A stretch of DNA of 5,982 nt from IMG/VR virus record IMGVR_UViG_2606217106_000001, positions 1 to 5,982 of that record; one strand, 5' to 3'. Of this stretch, positions 1 through 5,982 are shown piece after piece (within the stretch, counting starts at the first letter, position 1; each line of letters begins with the position of its first letter). Source of the stretch: a virus. Its lineage: Duplodnaviria; Heunggongvirae; Uroviricota; Caudoviricetes. Both the position numbers and the translations under genes were made by a program. Under the pieces are notes generated by a model. That model had not been told where the DNA came from and did not search any database. It saw only the letters and a list, made by a program, of their open reading frames with translations.

Positions 1-631
1 GAGATTGGGTTGGGAGAGTAGTCATGGTGACAGCCCCTATGTTGAATTCAATGAACTCACCACCAAGGCTTTCCACGACCATATAGGTGGTGAGACGTAC
101 AGGGGTGGAAATACCGGTCAACATAGAACCCGGCCCAACCGAAGTTGGCCCTGCACGCCCCACCATAATTTGGGCATAACGATGCTCATGACACGAAAAA
201 ACCGCATGAGCGCGGTTGTGCTCTATATTGAATTTCGGGTTTCCACGCCCGGCACCCGCTTTATAAGGTGCCTGAGCAGTGTAACGTCCCGGAATTGCAG
301 AATCAATATGCTGGTGGTCCTTCACACTCAACAAAATCACGCCTGAATTTCCACAAAGGACTAAAGCACTCATGCGGGTAGTCTTTGCGAAGATAGATAA
401 CGCGCTGTGTTTCTGGCTCCCAACGAATAACATGAACATAAAGTCCTCTTCCGTCACGAAACCAGCGGTTAAGTTCCTGCACAACTCGCCCCCCACAGTC
501 AGGTAAAGTTCTCTGTGGTTACTTACAGCCAGGTGATTTGGTAATCTGCATTCATGCCGTAACAACAGGTGTTCAGCGACGCTGACCACCAGCTGTTGCG
601 ACAAACGGTTATTTGCCGTTAAACTATTCAT
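1..631 (-). CDS. Hypothetical protein, N-terminal ~210 codons; gene continues beyond the window start. Position (after cro and the 183-aa gene) suggests a replication/early-right module, but function is unassigned
   Basis: Hand translation of the minus strand (plus-strand triplets 629-631, 626-628 ... 2-4) is stop-free to position 1. ATG at 631-629 overlaps the TGA of the upstream gene (ATGA at 628-631), with an in-frame stop just upstream at 635-637 and a GGAG about 10 nt upstream. It is missing from the ORF track because no stop lies in the window; the listed + ORF 5..346 is its same-register antisense shadow. No family recognised. Confidence 0.7.
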   Translation of the reverse strand, partial: MNSLTANNRLSQQLVVSVAEHLLLRHECRLPNHLAVSNHRELYLTVGGELCRNLTAGFVTEEDFMFMLFVGSQKHSALSIFAKTTRMSALVLCGNSGVILLSVKDHQHIDSAIPGRYTAQAPYKAGAGRGNPKFNIEHNRAHAVFSCHEHRYAQIMVGRAGPTSVGPGSMLTGISTPVRLTTYMVVESLGGEFIEFNIGAVTMTTLPTQS

Positions 632-1179
632 GCGTTAGTTTCTCCACAGACACAAAACGCCACGACGCCCGGAGCTGCACACTCGCGGGCGTCACTCTTT
701 TCTGGAGCGCAAAAGATTTTGTAGACCAGTGCTGCATGCTCCTGGAGCTTCGAAATTGACAGATACAACTCATCATTAATTGCTGTCTGCTCGTGTGGCT
801 CCACTACCCCATCTTCGATTGCCGAACGAATCTGCTTTGAGTAACTCCCGATCTGTTCGATGACTTCCAGCAGACGCTGGTTAATATCGGCGTTGTCCAC
901 ATCCTCGACGTCAGGAAGAGACACAAAGACGCCATTTGCAGACTGCGCCACAGCGTCAGCAATGAAGTGAGTTCCACCAGCACGTTGTAAAATCATTGCC
1001 CATCCCAGCGGGAAAATCTGATCGCCATCTGCACGAAGGCGGTTGAATAATGCGTTCTCTGTTACATCCAGCCACTCAGCAGCTTCAGCGTAACCCCCCG
1101 GCAACGCCGCGATAGTTTTTCTGACAGCTTTCACGTACCACTCAGGCTGTTTTTCCACTTTCCAGTGATGATTACCCAC
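628..1179 (-). CDS. 183-aa early protein in the cII position, immediately downstream of cro; possibly a CII-like/YdaT-like regulator, function not established
   Basis: GTG start at 1179-1177 preceded by AGGAGG with a 6-nt spacer (reverse complement of 1180-1195). The start overlaps the end of the cro-like gene by 8 nt and the stop overlaps the next start, so the three minus-strand genes are translationally coupled. The functional label is from position only. Confidence 0.7.
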   Translation of the reverse strand: MGNHHWKVEKQPEWYVKAVRKTIAALPGGYAEAAEWLDVTENALFNRLRADGDQIFPLGWAMILQRAGGTHFIADAVAQSANGVFVSLPDVEDVDNADINQRLLEVIEQIGSYSKQIRSAIEDGVVEPHEQTAINDELYLSISKLQEHAALVYKIFCAPEKSDARECAAPGVVAFCVCGETNA

Positions 1180-1432
1180 GGCTTACCTCCTGTTCCTGTG
1201 GTTTAAACCCATTCTGGTTTTGGCTAGATTGAAAACGTGCCGGATAAAGAATCTGCATTTCGCTGATTTCACCCTTAAAAAAATTGGCCAGACGTTCTGC
1301 AAGATCGATAGATGGAATTTGTTCCAGTCTTTCAATACGACTCAGCGTCGCTGGATTGACCTGAACGCCCGCAGCAACATGCTGCAAAGTAAATCCGTGC
1401 GCCTTACGCACATTCCGTAATGGTGATTGCAT
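1172..1432 (-). CDS. Cro-like HTH (XRE-family) transcriptional regulator, 86 aa
   Basis: ATG at 1432-1430 with GGAGG 4 nt upstream (reverse complement of 1433-1441). Protein has a classic XRE helix-turn-helix (FTLQHVAAGVQVNPATLSRIERLEQ). It is divergent from the cI-like gene across a 97-bp operator region. Confidence 0.85.
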   Translation of the reverse strand: MQSPLRNVRKAHGFTLQHVAAGVQVNPATLSRIERLEQIPSIDLAERLANFFKGEISEMQILYPARFQSSQNQNGFKPQEQEVSRG

Positions 1433-1529
1433 ATAACCTCCACATATTGCGTGATGAGCATATTATTTCACGCAAATATTTTGCGCAAGTTGATTTGCTT
1501 AACGCGCAATAAAGAAATGTAATAAACGC
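1433..1529. promoter_or_regulatory. OR-like immunity intergenic region with three dyad-symmetric operator candidates spaced 24 bp centre to centre, plus candidate divergent promoters pR (towards cro) and pRM (towards cI)
   Basis: Dyads at 1447-1461 (TTGC-N7-GCAT), 1471-1485 (CGCAA-N5-TTGCG) and 1495-1509 (TTGC-N7-GCAA). Candidate pR on the minus strand: -35 TTGCGC (reverse complement of 1483-1488), 17-nt spacer, -10 TAATAT (reverse complement of 1460-1465). Candidate pRM on the plus strand: -10 TAATAA at 1520-1525, which puts the transcript start at or near the cI ATG, and there is no SD before 1530. Confidence 0.6.
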
Positions 1530-2222
1530 ATGAACATAGGAAACCGAGTCAGACAACTTCGCCAGGCGAAGAACATGAAAATCGCCGATCTCGCTGAAGC
1601 AATAGGAGTGGATGCGGCGAATATCTCACGCCTGGAAACAGGTAAGCAGAAACAATTCACTGAACAAGCCCTGAGTAATATTGCCAGGAGCTTAGGTGTT
1701 GATATTGCTGATCTCTTTACCTCAGACGTCAAAAGTAATACTGTATGTAAAAACAGTATTAGTGAGGATGTTGCGCAGGTGAAGGATGTATTCCGTATTG
1801 AAATGCTGGATGTCAGTGCCAGTGCGGGAAATGGCCTTATCCAGGGCGGTGATGTCATTGATGTGATTCATGCCATTGAATACAGAACTGATAATGCTGT
1901 ATCGATGTTTGGCGGACGGCCAGCCAATCACATTAAAGTTATCAACGTTCGTGGGGACAGTATGTGTCCAACCATTGAGCCAGGAGATCTCATCTTCGTT
2001 GATATCAGTATCAATCAGTTTGATGGGGATGGTATATATGTATTTGGTTTTGATGATAAAATTTACGTCAAACGACTGCAAATGATACCTGATAAACTGC
2101 TGGTAATTTCTGATAATCAGATTTACCGCGAATGGGGAATTACCAGCGAAAACGAACATCGGTTTATGGTCTTTGGAAAGGTCTTAATCAGTCAGTCACA
2201 AACCCTTAAGCGACACAATTAA
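1530..2222 (+). CDS. cI-like prophage repressor, 230 aa: N-terminal XRE HTH plus C-terminal S24 (LexA-like) autopeptidase domain
   Basis: HTH at roughly residues 17-40 (KIADLAEAIGVDAANISRLETGKQ). Candidate Ala99-Gly100 cleavage site in the linker (SASAG-NG). GDSM with Ser144 and a KRL lysine (Lys181); the Ser-to-Lys spacing of 37 residues equals that of LexA. ATG at 1530 has no SD. Confidence 0.93.
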   Translation: MNIGNRVRQLRQAKNMKIADLAEAIGVDAANISRLETGKQKQFTEQALSNIARSLGVDIADLFTSDVKSNTVCKNSISEDVAQVKDVFRIEMLDVSASAGNGLIQGGDVIDVIHAIEYRTDNAVSMFGGRPANHIKVINVRGDSMCPTIEPGDLIFVDISINQFDGDGIYVFGFDDKIYVKRLQMIPDKLLVISDNQIYREWGITSENEHRFMVFGKVLISQSQTLKRHN

Positions 2223-2242
2223 CCCCTACCTCAACATCAATT

Positions 2243-2267
2243 AGCCACCAGAAGGTGGCTTTTCATT
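2243..2267 (+). terminator. Rho-independent terminator candidate downstream of the cI-like gene
   Basis: AGCCACC (2243-2249), 4-nt loop AGAA, GGTGGCT (2254-2260), followed by TTTTCATT; 21 bp after the cI stop. Confidence 0.6.
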
Positions 2268-2276
2268 ACCCACCAA

Positions 2277-2330
2277 ATTGCATATCTCGCAATAAAAACA
2301 CTTGCATAATGCGCAACTTCATTTTATCTT
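2277..2330 (+). promoter_or_regulatory. OL/pL-like region: two operator dyads matching the OR consensus, overlapping a candidate rightward promoter
   Basis: TTGC-N7-GCAA dyads at 2278-2292 and 2302-2316, centres 24 bp apart, with the shared core TTGCnTAnnnCGCAA. Candidate promoter: -35 TTGCAT at 2302-2307, 17-nt spacer, weak -10 TATCTT at 2325-2330. The promoter assignment is tentative. Confidence 0.45.
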
Positions 2331-2760
2331 TCTTTCCAGACATACAAACAAGGTACTAACAAAATTTGGTTGTAACACGGCGTATGGCACATGCGTCGTT
2401 AGCGGTCTGGTGACGTTAAAGGGGACAATCCACTCCTTGCTCGGGCAAACAAACCAGGTAGCCGGAATGTGCAAGTCAATGATGATGCTGATAAGACGCC
2501 TAACCAGCGTGGCGATTCGGTTTGACGCCTGGGAAGAGACCAGGGTGCAACGATGAGGGCATTTATGGAACCGCGACAAAGTGTGGTGCCGTAACTGGCT
2601 AAGTGCTCTCAGCGTTGTGGTGAATGCGCAGGCTGATGCGCGAAAGACATTGCAGCTATTGCGGAAAAGAGCTGTTCGGCGGGGCAATTAAACGCCCGTG
2701 AGAGTCTGAAATAACCGCAAGCCGGAGATCAGCACCGGTCACCACAACAGCCACTGCTTT

Positions 2761-2807
2761 AGCGGTACCAGTTTGTACACTTGCTTCCGGCTGGTACCGC
2801 TCTTTTT
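2761..2807 (+). terminator. Strong hairpin followed by a U-tract; candidate intrinsic terminator or attenuator upstream of the accessory operon
   Basis: Perfect 11-bp inverted repeat AGCGGTACCAG (2761-2771) and CTGGTACCGCT (2791-2801) around a 19-nt loop, then CTTTTTA at 2802-2808. The minus strand has no U-tract. Confidence 0.4.
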
Positions 2808-2896
2808 ACAAAACAGAGAAGAGCATCACCGGCCGACGGGCTCATAACCCAATCCATCCTGGCGGCTGCCACCGCAGGTGTTCTTCTCTGTTTTGT
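2808..2896. repeat. Perfect 15-bp inverted repeat enclosing 59 bp of GC-rich sequence, just upstream of the yfdP-like ribosome-binding site
   Basis: ACAAAACAGAGAAGA at 2808-2822 is the exact reverse complement of TCTTCTCTGTTTTGT at 2882-2896. The enclosed segment has further local dyads (for example CCTGGCGG...CCGCAGG). Confidence 0.6.
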
Positions 2897-2944
2897 GGAG
2901 AAACCAACCGACCTTGCAGGGTCGATATGATGAGGAGCAGCAAA

Positions 2945-3307
2945 ATGGCTAGCGAACGCAGTACTGATGTGCAGGCATTTATCGGGGAGCTGGACGGCGG
3001 CGTATTTGAAACCAAAATCGGCGCTGTTCTCAGTGAAGTCGCTTCCGGTGTGATGAATACGAAAACCAAAGGTAAGGTCTCGCTCAACCTGGAAATCGAA
3101 CCATTTGATGAGAACCGTGTGAAAATCAAACACAAACTCTCATATGTTCGCCCGACTAACCGCGGGAAAATTTCCGAAGAAGACACCACCGAAACGCCGA
3201 TGTATGTCAATCGCGGTGGTCGCCTGACTATTCTGCAGGAAGACCAGGGACAATTACTGACTCTTGCCGGTGAACCTGACGGAAAACTCCGCGCAGCAGG
3301 TCGTTAA
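2945..3307 (+). CDS. yfdP: YfdP-like prophage protein of unknown function, 120 aa from this start
   Basis: ATG at 2945 preceded by GAGGAG (2932-2937) with a 7-nt spacer. The ORF track begins at ATG 2927 (126 aa), which remains an alternative. Symbol assigned by synteny with yfdQ/yfdR and recalled length; not verified. Confidence 0.7.
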   Translation: MASERSTDVQAFIGELDGGVFETKIGAVLSEVASGVMNTKTKGKVSLNLEIEPFDENRVKIKHKLSYVRPTNRGKISEEDTTETPMYVNRGGRLTILQEDQGQLLTLAGEPDGKLRAAGR

Positions 3308-3372
3308 TATCGTTTTTAATTAACTGATTATTTATCTCATCACTGAATATCTTTATATAGTGAGGACTTATT

Positions 3373-4197
3373 ATGTCTCAGAACTTAGACGCAACCGCAA
3401 TTAATCAAATCCATGCCCTTATTTCTGCTCAGGGTGTTAATGAAATTATCAGTAAGATTGGTGCCGATGCTGTGGCATTGCCTGAGAATTTCCGCATTCA
3501 TGATCTGGAAAAATTTAATTTAAATCGCTTCCGTTTCCGTGGTGCGCTTTCCACTGCCAGCATCGATGACTTTACCCGTTATTCTAAAGATCTTGCAGAT
3601 GAAGGCACCCGCTGCTTTATCGATGCTGATAATATGCGTGCCGTCAGTGTGCTTAACCTGGGTACTATTGATGAACCAGGTCACGCAGATAACACCGCCA
3701 CACTCAAACTGAAAAAGACAGCACCGTTCTCTGCTCTGTTGTCTGTTAACGGCGAGCGTAACTCCCAGAAGTCACTGGCAGAATGGATTGAAGACTGGGC
3801 CGACTACCTTGTGGGCTTTGATGCTAATGGTGACGCTATTCAGGCAACAAAAGCGGCTGCGGCAGTCCGTAAAATCACGATTGAAGCAAACCAGACCGCT
3901 GATTTTGAAGATAATGACTTCAGCGGCAAACGCTCCCTGATGGAATCTGTCGAAGCGAAGACCAAAGACATTATGCCAGTGACATTTGAATTTAAATGCG
4001 TTCCGTTTGAAGGCCTGAAAGAACGTCCGTTTAAATTACGCCTCAGCATTATCACTGGCGATCGTCCTGTACTGGTTCTGCGCATTATTCAGCTGGAGGC
4101 GGTGCAGGAAGAAATGGCTAACGAATTTCGTGATCTGCTTGTTGAGAAATTTAAGGACAGCAAAGTAGAAACCTTTATTGGTACTTTCACCGCCTGA
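3373..4197 (+). CDS. yfdQ: YfdQ-like prophage protein (DUF2303 family as I recall it), 274 aa, function unknown
   Basis: ATG at 3373 with GTGAGGA (3360-3366) at good spacing; a long uninterrupted ORF of protein-like composition. Length and position match CPS-53 YfdQ from memory. Confidence 0.88.
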
Positions 4198-4209
4198 TTT
4201 CATTACTGC

Positions 4210-4231
4210 AAATGCCCCTGCGGGGGCATTT
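4210..4231 (+). other. GC-rich hairpin in the yfdQ-yfdR spacer; weak terminator, attenuator or RNA-stability element
   Basis: AAATGCCCC (4210-4218), loop TGCG, GGGGCATTT (4223-4231): a 9-bp stem starting 13 nt after the yfdQ stop. The 3' T-run is short and mostly inside the stem. Confidence 0.35.
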
Positions 4232-4324
4232 ATGGAAACATAATTTACTCAATAATCGCCGGATGGTGATGGCTTCCTTTTACCAGAATTCAGCGCGGTG
4301 CAGCGCATATACGTGGAGAACAAA

Positions 4325-4861
4325 ATGTCATTTATTAAAACTTTTTCCGGGAAGCATTTTTATTATGACAGGATAAATAAAGACGACATCGTGATTAACG
4401 ATATCGCGGTTTCCCTTTCAAATATCTGTCGCTTTGCAGGACATCTTTCACACTTCTACAGCGTCGCCCAACATGCGGTGCTTTGCAGCCAGCTGGTACC
4501 GCAGGAATTTGCTTTTGAAGCGTTAATGCATGATGCAACAGAAGCGTATTGCCAGGATATTCCCGCTCCACTGAAACGCCTTCTTCCTGACTATAAACGG
4601 ATGGAAGAAAAAATAGACGCCGTAATCCGTGAGAAATACGGGTTACCCCCGGTTATGAGCACGCCCGTGAAATATGCCGATCTCATCATGCTGGCAACCG
4701 AACGCCGCGATCTCGGGCTTGATGATAGCTCTTTCTGGCCTGTACTGGAAGGTATCCCGGCAACAGAGATGTTCAAAGTGATTCCACTGTCGCCAGGCCA
4801 TGCCTACGGGATGTTTATGGAACGTTTTAACGAGTTATCGGAGTTACGCAAATGCGCATGA
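4325..4861 (+). CDS. yfdR: YfdR-like HD-domain phosphohydrolase (YfbR-type 5'-deoxynucleotidase family), 178 aa
   Basis: ATG at 4325 with GGAGAA (4314-4319) upstream; the ORF-track start at 4298 is a GTG 9 codons further up with no SD. HD-domain residues are visible: H40, H43, H50 and the H69-D70 pair (FAGHLSH ... LMHDATEAY). Confidence 0.88.
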   Translation: MSFIKTFSGKHFYYDRINKDDIVINDIAVSLSNICRFAGHLSHFYSVAQHAVLCSQLVPQEFAFEALMHDATEAYCQDIPAPLKRLLPDYKRMEEKIDAVIREKYGLPPVMSTPVKYADLIMLATERRDLGLDDSSFWPVLEGIPATEMFKVIPLSPGHAYGMFMERFNELSELRKCA

Positions 4862-5202
4862 ATGTTTTCGAAATGGAAGGGTTTCTTCGCGGGAAATGTG
4901 TACCACGAGATCTGAAAGTGAATGAAACAAATGCTGAGTATCTGGTGCGTAAATTCGATGAAGTACGTGCTGAGGCTCGCAACGAGGGTATTAACTATAC
5001 CGCAAGCCGTCTTGCTGCGGCTTTCAATCACGGATTTATCAATAAGTCTTTACGTGAAGTTTTCGACGTTACACGCATGATTCTGTCAGCGAAAGAAGAG
5101 TTGGCTAATGAACCACACCCGATTGATGGCCTGTCCGGTGAATATGCGGAGAAATCCCTAGAAGAATGGGCGGAACAGATTCGCAAAGGAGGCAACCAGT
5201 GA
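4852..5202 (+). CDS. YfdS-like small prophage protein, 116 aa; C-terminus ends in the RKGGNQ junction motif
   Basis: ATG at 4852 with GGAG (4840-4843) 8 nt upstream; it overlaps the yfdR stop (4859-4861) by 10 nt. An in-frame ATG at 4858 gives an ATGA overlap instead. The stop overlaps the next gene's GTG start. Confidence 0.75.
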   Translation: MRMNVFEMEGFLRGKCVPRDLKVNETNAEYLVRKFDEVRAEARNEGINYTASRLAAAFNHGFINKSLREVFDVTRMILSAKEELANEPHPIDGLSGEYAEKSLEEWAEQIRKGGNQ

Positions 5203-5204
5203 GC
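5180..5204 (+). repeat. Copy 1 of a 25-bp perfect direct repeat spanning a gene junction (codons for RKGGNQ, SD, stop and GTG start)
   Basis: TTCGCAAAGGAGGCAACCAGTGAGC is identical at 5180-5204 and 5857-5881. About 40 bp of downstream flank is similar but not identical (roughly 70% by eye). Confidence 0.9.
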
Positions 5205-5879
5205 AAGATTGACTATCAAGAACTGCGCGAGGCGGCGGAACAGGCAACGCAAGATGAATGGGTAGCATATATTTTGCCGGGTCATAACGGCATTTATCCT
5301 GCGCGCACGTCTGAGGGTAGGCATTGCGGATACTTTATTGACTGGCCTGGCGTCTGTCAGGGGCGGGAGAGCATCAGCATCAGAACCTACGCAGTGAATT
5401 GCAATGACGCATGGCTAAACACCGAAGGTGATGACATCTCCGGCTCATACGTTAAGTACAAAGACCATCAGGAAGTGGTTGCCGCTCTTGAGGCCAAGTG
5501 CGCGGCGCTGGCTGCTGAGAATGCGGGAATAAAGTCTGCAATTCCAAAATCACGGGATATTGAGGATGACAATGACAATATGGATGACGTATCTCTCGCG
5601 GAAGACTTCGGGTTCAATCATGCAATAGAACGGATGAGGAGACAGATACCTGAAACGCCAACCACTGATGCTTTCCTGGCTGAAGTCCGGGCGCAGGGGG
5701 TGGATGCTGCTATAGAAGCTGCAAAAAATCTGGTGGCCCAAGAATATGAGTGTAAGGATTTCAAAGCGGCGCAGAGTGATTGCTGTATGTACCCTGGTTC
5801 AGACCTGGTAGGGAAGGTTGAAATGACTGAGTGGTTAGTTGACTTTGCTGCCCAGCTTCGCAAAGGAGGCAACCAGTGA
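5199..5879 (+). CDS. Acidic hypothetical protein, 226 aa, tentatively Ead/Ea22-like (typical lambdoid early-left accessory gene)
   Basis: GTG at 5199 preceded by AAGGAGG (5186-5192) with a 6-nt spacer, overlapping the upstream stop (GTGA). The ORF-track start at ATG 5166 has no SD and would overlap the upstream gene by 37 nt. N-terminus SKIDYQELREAAEQ; C-terminus LRKGGNQ. Confidence 0.75.
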   Translation: MSKIDYQELREAAEQATQDEWVAYILPGHNGIYPARTSEGRHCGYFIDWPGVCQGRESISIRTYAVNCNDAWLNTEGDDISGSYVKYKDHQEVVAALEAKCAALAAENAGIKSAIPKSRDIEDDNDNMDDVSLAEDFGFNHAIERMRRQIPETPTTDAFLAEVRAQGVDAAIEAAKNLVAQEYECKDFKAAQSDCCMYPGSDLVGKVEMTEWLVDFAAQLRKGGNQ

Positions 5880-5881
5880 GC
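5857..5881 (+). repeat. Copy 2 of the 25-bp perfect direct repeat at the next gene junction
   Basis: Identical to 5180-5204, 677 bp downstream, in the same relation to stop and start codons. Confidence 0.9.
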
Positions 5882-5982
5882 GAAATTAATTACCAGGCAC
5901 TGCGTGAGGTGGCGGAACGTGCAATTCCAGCAATGGAACGCCTGTTAATGTTGCCAGTTGATGATGATTTGTTAAGTGAACA
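5876..5982 (+). CDS. Paralogue of the preceding gene, first 35 codons only; runs off the window end
   Basis: GTG at 5876 behind the same AAGGAGG and GTGA stop-start overlap. The N-terminus VSEINYQALREVAER parallels VSKIDYQELREAAEQ of the upstream gene. Open to the window end, so not in the ORF track. Confidence 0.55.
   Translation, partial: MSEINYQALREVAERAIPAMERLLMLPVDDDLLSE

Follow-up and report, generated by a model that had tools for sequence, protein, structure and literature searches.

A conserved terminator-like hairpin upstream of yfdP coincides with the 3′ end of the small RNA sRNA-17 in an mEp460-type lambdoid phage

The DNA analysed here, referred to as the window, is the stretch of 5,982 nt at positions 1 to 5,982 of the IMG/VR virus record IMGVR_UViG_2606217106_000001. 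It is 99.2% identical to the lambdoid phage mEp460 and 100% identical to one E. coli chromosome. The element in question is an inverted repeat followed by a T run at positions 2761-2807 (hairpin 1), located between the repressor gene cI and the gene yfdP. The operator-like repeats that follow cI are succeeded by about 600 nt without a credible open reading frame (ORF), up to yfdP, the first gene gated by the hairpin at 2761-2801; yfdQ (DUF2303), yfdR (4298-4861) and yfdS come after yfdP. Comparison with published data revealed that the feature is the 3′ end of an already published small RNA (sRNA), sRNA-17 of E. coli K1 strain RS218, and the best explanation of the locus is that sRNA-17 is an sRNA of the DicF/STnc100 kind, encoded in the leader of the early-left operon of mEp460-, SfV- and ST64B-type lambdoid phages.

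Direct reading of the sequence, an inverted-repeat search and RNA folding all confirmed the perfect 11-bp stem, the GGTACC-containing arms and the CTTTTTA tail described in a first-pass annotation of the window. The region 2761-2807 reads AGCGGTACCAG-TTTGTACACTTGCTTCCGG-CTGGTACCGCT-CTTTTT, in which the two arms are complementary at 11/11 positions, lie 19 nt apart and each contain a KpnI site (GGTACC); the tail after the stem is CTTTTTAC. The RNA fold adds two G-U pairs to give 13 bp in total, and 7 of the 11 perfect pairs are G-C. The free energy of hairpin 1 was -21.2 kcal/mol, compared with -11.2 ± 2.6 kcal/mol for 200 shuffled sequences (z = -3.9), none of which (0/200) was as stable. It is the sole perfect 11-bp hairpin (loop of 3-25 nt) anywhere in the 5982-nt window, and among 400 windows simulated with a first-order Markov model any such hairpin occurred in 14, and one with at least 5 T in the next 8 nt in none (0/400). 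The end of the stem is 143 nt from the yfdP ATG (2945), in agreement with the spacing of about 140 bp given earlier. Read on the minus strand, the stem runs into AAAGCAG, so only the plus strand has a terminator-like arrangement.

sRNA-17 was published by Sun et al. (Front Microbiol 2020, PMC7719688) as an RNA of 193 nt according to 5′ and 3′ rapid amplification of cDNA ends (RACE); it was visible on northern blots, induced in stationary phase and repressed by ArcA. All primers in Table S2 of that paper were found to map onto the window, 20 of them at 0 mismatches, with 1 mismatch in the knock-out primer KO_F. The "full-length" primers are located at 2613-2645 (plus strand) and 2775-2806 (minus strand), the 5′-RACE primers are antisense and nested toward 2613, the 3′-RACE primers are sense and directed toward 2806, and the northern probe is antisense. 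These positions and orientations place sRNA-17 on the plus strand at roughly 2613-2806. In RS218 coordinates its two ends lie 392 nt past the cI stop codon and 567 nt before the yfdQ start, in exact agreement with the window; the two loci share the mEp460 prophage type and differ at position 2761, which is G in RS218 and A in the window. The published RACE end, thus mapped, lies inside the U tract, 5-6 nt past the stem, as intrinsic termination would give. The amplicon used for quantitative PCR (2364-2759) implies a longer precursor, from which processing probably generated the 5′ end at 2613. Sun et al. nowhere called the hairpin a terminator, reported no Rfam homologue, and remarked neither on a kinship with DicF and STnc100 nor on the position of yfdP directly downstream.

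RNA-seq data from the same study bear on the genes behind the hairpin. In the wild-type RS218 lysogen, in which sRNA-17 itself is detectable, yfdP had 0.49 reads and yfdR 0, and in the sRNA-17 cassette mutant 47.0 and 8.5 reads, respectively (PMC7719688). Table 1 of that paper lists the two genes, with log2 changes of 6.6 for yfdP and 4.1 for yfdR, as the most strongly upregulated and as trans "targets". The mutant retains the chloramphenicol-resistance (CmR) cassette, which by primer mapping replaces 2639-2756 and leaves hairpin 1 intact. Because both genes are located immediately downstream of sRNA-17, their roughly 100-fold rise is probably a cis artefact and not trans regulation; transcription from or through the CmR cassette that leaks past the terminator is the simpler explanation and a much more likely one. 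The joint rise of yfdP and yfdR fits co-transcription from upstream. The two strongest sRNA-17 "targets" are simply the next genes downstream, and the best-supported reading is that the hairpin keeps the yfdP genes almost silent in lysogens.

To examine conservation, YfdP-homologue loci were taken from species-representative genomes and IMG/VR, and their upstream regions were reduced to 69 representatives. A closed hairpin followed by a T run was found 90-190 nt before the yfdP ATG in 58 of the 69 regions, covering E. coli, Shigella, Salmonella ST64B, Klebsiella, Citrobacter, Kosakonia, Providencia and others. Stems are divergent, for example GGCGGTACCAG/CTGGTACCGCC, GTCGGCGTC/GACGCCGAC, GGCGGTTATCCA/TGGATAACCGCC, TGGCTGGCTGAGT/GCTCAGTCAGCCA and TGCCCATCG/CGGTGGGCA, and loops range from 3 to about 50 nt. 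In the basal stem, changes on both sides were observed in 12 of 13 pairs (86 cells versus 40.7 ± 5.6 after shuffling; 0/500). The covariation score was 0.44, whereas slid controls gave 0.08-0.18; as the five basal pairs were required in picking the hairpins, the unbiased covariation signal is that of pairs 6-11. Of 5426 complete E. coli genomes, 2491 (~46%) carry the module at 2750-2905, where RefSeq annotates nothing or a "hypothetical protein". The K-12 prophage CPS-53 has lost the hairpin element, with the deletion junction about 20 nt before yfdP, and K-12 was therefore rejected as an experimental proxy. A literature search on yfdP plus terminator and on ST64B sRNAs returned nothing relevant.

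Several relatives carry additional features at the hairpin. In the long-loop forms (for example loci L013, L029, L035, L130, L143 and L266), a Shine-Dalgarno-like GGAGG is followed after 8-9 nt by AUG/GUG-UUC-UG(A) (GAUAAUGUUCUG); this motif directly abuts the 3′ arm and is absent from the window. The 60-70-nt long-loop version of the hairpin is probably ancestral, and its motif could be a mini-ORF, a ribosome-binding-site mimic or a seed. As a coding leader mini-ORF (AUG-UUC-UGA) it was rejected, given that the start is AAG or ACG in some relatives, that frame and stop are not conserved and that the window lacks it. In the Providencia loci L035 and L037 a CsrA-like ORF ends just 5′ of hairpin 1, which suggests that the hairpin there also terminates the csrA homologue; several GGA motifs were seen in the hairpin loop and within the downstream GUGGAG motif. 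In the position of the linker before the hairpin, where the window has AGCCACUGCUUU, most relatives have the RprA-like UUGCUGUGUGUAGUCUU. RprA-like relatives include L264 (1240-1340), L268 (1204-1340) and L003 (2990-3010), and Klebsiella-type copies scored 46-47 bits with the RprA model because their linker, hairpin and U tail almost equal the 3′ half of RprA; these copies may be prophage mimics of processed RprA. The hairpin element also marks a mosaic module boundary: the homology of many E. coli prophages to the window starts exactly at 2762, within the first hairpin bases, and in the IMG/VR contig L044 the left arm is lost, with the junction inside the hairpin about 100 nt upstream of yfdP.

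The hairpin was then compared with DicF. A search of 2250-2960 of the window with Rfam gave no match to DicF, STnc100 or any other family even at E = 10. Three relatives (L283, L263 and L021) matched DicF (RF00039) with 28-31 bits and E values of 0.006-0.04, the gathering threshold being 48 bits. A covariance model (R1), trained on nothing but 21 short-loop hairpins that precede yfdP, scored the window at 54.9 bits and also recovered the long-loop relatives; within the Qin locus its sole match was the K-12 dicF (28.5 bits, E ~0.001). In L045-type E. coli prophages, 123 nt of the sequence preceding the hairpin share 89% identity with the sequence that precedes dicF, and the DicF alignment pairs TTTGGCGGTATCAGTTTT...GCCGCCCTTTTTA with TTTAGCGGTACCAGTTTG...ACCGCTCTTTTTA. 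In the K-12 Qin prophage a domain closed by GUUGUGGC...GCUGCAAC precedes dicF, whose stem GGCGGUAUCAG...CUGCCGCC is followed by CUUUUU; 9 nt past dicF there is a 21-bp helix with an STnc100-like domain inside it, and dicB comes after that. The alignment, the flank homology and the reciprocal covariance-model matches indicate homology of both position and sequence, so that hairpin 1 is the counterpart, in its own operon, of the terminator that ends DicF in the dicBF operon of Qin.

DicF is known in several forms. The 53-nt form arises by early Rho-independent termination and RNase E trimming, and the 72-nt form by an RNase III cut of the read-through RNA (PMC9438474); there is also a 190-nt form, which builds up in stationary phase and owes its 5′ end to RNase III (bioRxiv 10.1101/2023.04.14.536235). 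sRNA-17 looks like the counterpart of the 190-nt form, as it is 193 nt long, starts at the base of the GUUGUGG helix and is induced in stationary phase. Crude whole-RNA duplex energies with ftsZ were no better than those of shuffled sequences, for DicF and the window RNA alike.

The domain 5′ of the hairpin is related to STnc100. In the SfV-type leader STnc100 (RF02076) matched with 39.5 bits (E 4e-5) over all 206 model positions, with hairpin 1 as the terminator of the model, and a partial match of 35.1 bits was found in ST64B; the gathering threshold is 47 bits. The 5′ and 3′ parts of the window domain align with the SfV-type copy, and the domain encloses internal hairpins, including CCGG-N9-CCGG at 2721-2738; in relatives, the corresponding closing helix and last hairpin make up the core of the RF02076 matches. 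Copies 88-98% identical to window 2364-2478 and 2602-2747 were also seen on P1-like plasmids (L041, 2501-2637; L042, 2501-2612), immediately 3′ of tRNA genes and with partial STnc100 matches upstream of a terB-like gene. In the Phytobacter prophages L025 and L030 the leader slot holds a predicted tRNA-Ile(AAU) with the acceptor stem GUUGUGG/CCGCAAC. A tRNA or tRNA-like gene in the leader was considered and rejected, as ARAGORN found none in the window or in most relatives and only the Phytobacter loci have one. What is new here is the assignment of sRNA-17 to the DicF/STnc100 kind, the breadth of its distribution and the cis reinterpretation of its published "targets".

Table 1. Features of the window around the yfdP leader, with coordinates, strand and basis
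Feature	Position	Strand	Basis or remark
C4 and IsrK-type RNAs	83-170 and 195-271	-	Rfam above threshold (C4 antisense RNA 82.4 bits; IsrK 61.6 bits)
CII (CP76)-family gene	628-1179	-	
cro-like gene	1172-1432	-	
S24/helix-turn-helix repressor gene (cI)	1530-2222	+	
Bidirectional terminator	2243-2260		After the repressor gene
Two operator-like repeats, candidate OL	2278-2292 (TTGCATATCTCGCAA); 2302-2316 (TTGCATAATGCGCAA)	+	Direct repeat
Weak candidate pL	-35 TTGCAT 2302-2307; -10 TATCTT 2325-2330	+	17-nt spacer; overlaps the repeats
sRNA-17 (~193 nt)	2613..2807 (3′ end ~2806)	+	STnc100-like domain, 12-nt linker, terminator hairpin, U tract
STnc100-like domain	2614-2748	+	GUUGUGGUGA (2614-2623) pairs with UCACCACAAC (2739-2748); inverted repeat, fold
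Single-stranded linker AGCCACUGCUUU	2749-2760	+	Seed position; alignments
Hairpin 1	Arms 2761-2771 / 2791-2801; loop 2772-2790	+	Inverted repeat, fold, covariation, model R1
U tract CUUUUUAC	2802-2809	+	T run invariant in relatives; RNA 3′ end ~2806-2807
Hairpin 2	2803-2901; helix 2803-2832 with 2872-2901	+	~25 bp, branched apex; inverted repeat, folds, covariation
CGGGCUCAUAACCC (= CGGGCTCATAACCC), hairpin 2 apex	2837-2850	+	Identical to initiator tRNA anticodon stem-loop
Conserved single-stranded motif GGAGAAACCAAC (GUGGAGAAACUAAC in relatives)	2897-2908	+	Alignments
Hairpin 3, CGACCU-UGCA-GGGUCG	2909-2924	+	Fold; just 5′ of the yfdP ribosome-binding site
Shine-Dalgarno GAGGAG and yfdP	2932-2937; ATG 2945, stop 3307	+	ORF list, annotation in relatives

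The RNA downstream of the hairpin is also highly structured, the stretch 2749-2947 folding to -83.3 kcal/mol (z = -5.8). The helix of hairpin 2 takes in the U tract; in the relatives 20 of its pairs were 89.8% paired, with double changes in 11 pairs and 52 doubly changed cells versus 14.6 ± 3.1 after shuffling (0/500). By analogy with dicF-dicB it is a candidate RNase III site in the read-through RNA. ARAGORN found no tRNA at its apex (2837-2850), where the longest common substring of the K-12 metZ gene and the window leader is 14 nt long (metZ positions 29-42); about 0.003 matches of this kind are expected by chance against all tRNAs, a figure counted post hoc. The CUCAU core of this tRNA-like apex is kept in 31 of the 69 representative relatives. 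A conserved GGAGAAACYAAC stretch lies between hairpin 2 and hairpin 3, and relatives have GGCGG-UGGCA-GCCGCC at the position of hairpin 3. In the minimum-free-energy fold the linker CUGCUUU (2754-2760) pairs with GGAGCAG (2934-2940), which overlaps the yfdP Shine-Dalgarno sequence; this modelled pairing suggests possible occlusion of the ribosome-binding site in the read-through RNA, or autoregulation.

Upstream of the sRNA, the first-pass annotation had placed a candidate pL. The TTGC-N7-GCAA consensus of the operator-like repeats recurs at 1495-1509 in the cI-cro spacer, and the region of the repeats and candidate pL is conserved in phage SfII. The candidate pL fell below the threshold of the promoter scan and can be proposed by inference only; thus the repeats, the weak promoter and the conservation in SfII make it plausible, and its activity unproven. 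At the other end of the window, the region with the C4 and IsrK matches is a P1/Gifsy-type immI-like antirepressor control region, where the Rfam scan also gave a weak c4-a1b1 target site. The Pfam scan assigned no family to YfdP or to the ORFs between cI and yfdP. The mEp460 record has two minus-strand hypothetical proteins here, mEp460_037 (window 2319-2687) and mEp460_036 (2729-2872), of which the longer, mEp460_037, has no Pfam family; both are probably spurious calls, as they lie on the strand opposite to the experimentally detected plus-strand RNA.

According to the first-pass annotation, expression of yfdP to yfdS from pL would, if the hairpin terminates, need antitermination or an internal promoter, possibly in the yfdP-yfdQ spacer. 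The sigma-70 promoter scan gave no hit in that spacer, nor in the interval from the hairpin to yfdP, and a promoter in the spacer would not explain yfdP itself. Nor does the proposed need hold, since the dicBF precedent of a leaky terminator with RNase III/RNase E processing requires no dedicated antiterminator. Candidate antitermination systems were nevertheless sought. No N-like arginine-rich protein was found by Pfam among the ORFs between cI and yfdP, and an N/nut system was rejected on that account; no N has been reported for SfII, SfV and SfIV (PMC3851460). A boxA-like GUGCUCU lies at 2603-2609, just 5′ of the STnc100-like domain, and the hairpin GCGCA-GGCUGA-UGCGC at 2626-2641 is part of that domain. 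An HK022 put-like antiterminator RNA was rejected, as the putL sequence proved on inspection not to be similar and blastn against the HK022 immunity region returned the cI gene only. Also rejected was an antiterminator structure in which UUGCUGUGUGUAG, a conserved upstream sequence, would pair with the 5′ arm of hairpin 2, because the E. coli variants do not preserve it.

Taken together, we consider that hairpin 1 and its U tract form a leaky intrinsic terminator which makes sRNA-17 and gates the early-left operon, with a probability of roughly 0.8. Transcription would enter from the candidate pL by the operators, or from another promoter before 2364, and RNA polymerase would traverse the STnc100-like domain and mostly stop in the U tract at about 2806. 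The terminated RNA would be trimmed at about 2613 to give the 193-nt species, whose stem-loop and U tail resemble the usual Hfq-binding 3′ module of enterobacterial sRNAs; Hfq binding may be presumed from this, and the RNA might act in trans. A minority of transcripts would read through, their next 100 nt folding into a 25-bp helix that swallows the U tract, and RNase III, by analogy with dicF-dicB, would probably cut hairpin 2 and release the yfdP-yfdQ-yfdR-yfdS mRNA. One element would thus both make the sRNA and set the low basal level of the accessory operon. The terminator proposed from sequence alone in the first-pass annotation is therefore upheld as a plus-strand 3′-end former between the repressor/operator region and yfdP, by the published RACE and the near-zero yfdP and yfdR reads; by treating the hairpin as anonymous, it missed that the element is of DicF type and supplies the 3′ module of an sRNA already known.

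Several points weigh against this interpretation. The loop of 19 nt, or 11-15 nt after the extra pairs, is longer than in textbook terminators, most catalogued ones having loops of 3-8 nt, and is the sole non-canonical feature of the hairpin; the U tract has just five U. A simple terminator scan gave no call at hairpin 1, which it missed because it admits loops of 3-8 nt only and the 19-nt loop exceeds the 8-nt limit. The window copy is below recognition by the Rfam DicF and STnc100 models at E = 10. A true pL should be repressed in the lysogen, yet sRNA-17 is made there. The rise of yfdP in the mutant is confounded, and with the CmR cassette left in and the hairpin kept (deletion 2639-2756) the deletion is no gauge of terminator strength. 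RACE, finally, cannot tell termination from 3′ trimming back to a stable hairpin.

This last point is what gives some room to a processing or stability element, in which polymerase does not stop at the hairpin and 3′ exonucleases or RNase E/III trim a longer RNA back to the stem-loop. The RACE and northern data fit termination and trimming alike, the long RNase III-type helix from 2803 includes the U tract, and DicF also has a 3′ end made by RNase III (PMC9438474). Yet even very divergent relatives, whose stems and loops differ in sequence, all keep the T run directly after the stem, and this is a signature of intrinsic termination, not of a barrier to exonucleases. Were processing the only mechanism, it would need to remove every downstream transcript for yfdP to have almost no reads in the wild type. 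The end of 53-nt DicF, which occupies the homologous position, has been attributed to termination (PMC9438474). We regard trimming without termination as improbable. An element acting at the DNA level, that is, a protein-binding or recombination site, a module junction or a chance palindrome with no RNA role, is scarcely credible: the homology that begins at 2762 in many E. coli prophages and the L044 recombination junction inside the hairpin would suit it, but the pairing survives sequence change through compensatory substitutions, the T tract is both strand-specific and invariant, an RNA has its 3′ end there in vivo, and a chance origin is excluded at about 0/400 simulated windows.

Rather less improbable, if still unlikely, is that the hairpin is a conditional attenuator, a regulated terminator at which read-through needs a signal, given by a put-like RNA, a protein antiterminator or a ribosome in the loop. 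The phage group lacks N (PMC3851460) and no N-like ORF was found here, the boxA-like motif stands just before the structured domain, and a ribosome bound to the GGAGG and AUG/GUG-UUC-UGA of the long-loop relatives would block the stem. The window loop, however, has neither a Shine-Dalgarno sequence nor an AUG, and the mini-ORF of the relatives varies in start (AAG or ACG in some), frame and stop; the leader is not similar in sequence to HK022 putL, the pairing of UUGCUGUGUGUAG with the 5′ arm of hairpin 2 is lost in E. coli variants, and dicF functions without such a device. A leaky terminator of the dicBF type thus accounts for the locus better than a regulated one.

A more elaborate proposal, which we put forward as a long shot, is that the yfdP leader is a modular RNA gate common to many Enterobacterales prophages, with a DicF-type hairpin carrying interchangeable seeds, actively controlled read-through, and the initiator-tRNA-arm domain as a decoy or sensor. 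The seeds would be the RprA 3′-half mimic in most relatives and the ribosome-binding-site mimic or mini-ORF in the long-loop forms. If true, the tRNA arm could be a decoy or sensor for VapC-type toxins that cleave tRNA-fMet, for initiation factor 3 (IF3)/30S subunits or for methionyl-tRNA synthetase (MetRS), and expression of yfdPQRS would be coupled to the translation-initiation state of the host. Irrespective of this, the hairpin itself is ordinary, and the interest lies in sRNA-17, which was reported without a homologue and now joins DicF and STnc100 with the architecture of the dicF-dicB junction. The hairpin and helix module is a concrete unannotated feature for annotators, occurring in ~46% of the complete E. 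coli genomes as well as in prophages from many other Enterobacterales, and, if the analogy with dicF-dicB holds, it would offer a simple system for leaky termination with RNase III processing in N-less lambdoid phages.

The genetic organization of the locus is similar to that of dicF. Both elements come after the repressor gene in a lambdoid early-left operon and precede the gene for its first small protein; a GUUGUGG...CAAC-closed domain lies 5′ of the element, a GGCGGUAxCAG... stem is followed by CUUUUU, and a helix of 21-25 bp follows 2-9 nt after the hairpin and before the next gene. Long (~190-nt) and short forms and accumulation in stationary phase are likewise common to both. They differ in the 5′ single-stranded part (12 nt in the window, about 31 nt in DicF), in the next gene (yfdP in the window, dicB in Qin) and in loop and seed, the ftsZ-ribosome-binding-site-matching loop of DicF, GUUUUACUCC, not being kept in the window as judged by eye. 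With STnc100, a prophage sRNA related to PasD, the window shares the closing helix caUGGUGAAU...CACCAug, the last internal hairpin CCGGGAGGCACCCGG and a terminal terminator; the interior of the window domain is replaced, and canonical STnc100 copies belong to the late region, where they lie near Q or behind stx2, whereas that of the window is in the early-left leader. Like the lambda tL1 and HK022 put systems, hairpin 1 stands near the start of the leftward operon of a lambdoid phage, with the operators before it and accessory or recombination genes after it. Unlike lambda with its N/nut system, the window has no N gene that could be found, and, in contrast to tL1, the terminated product in the window is itself a stable sRNA.

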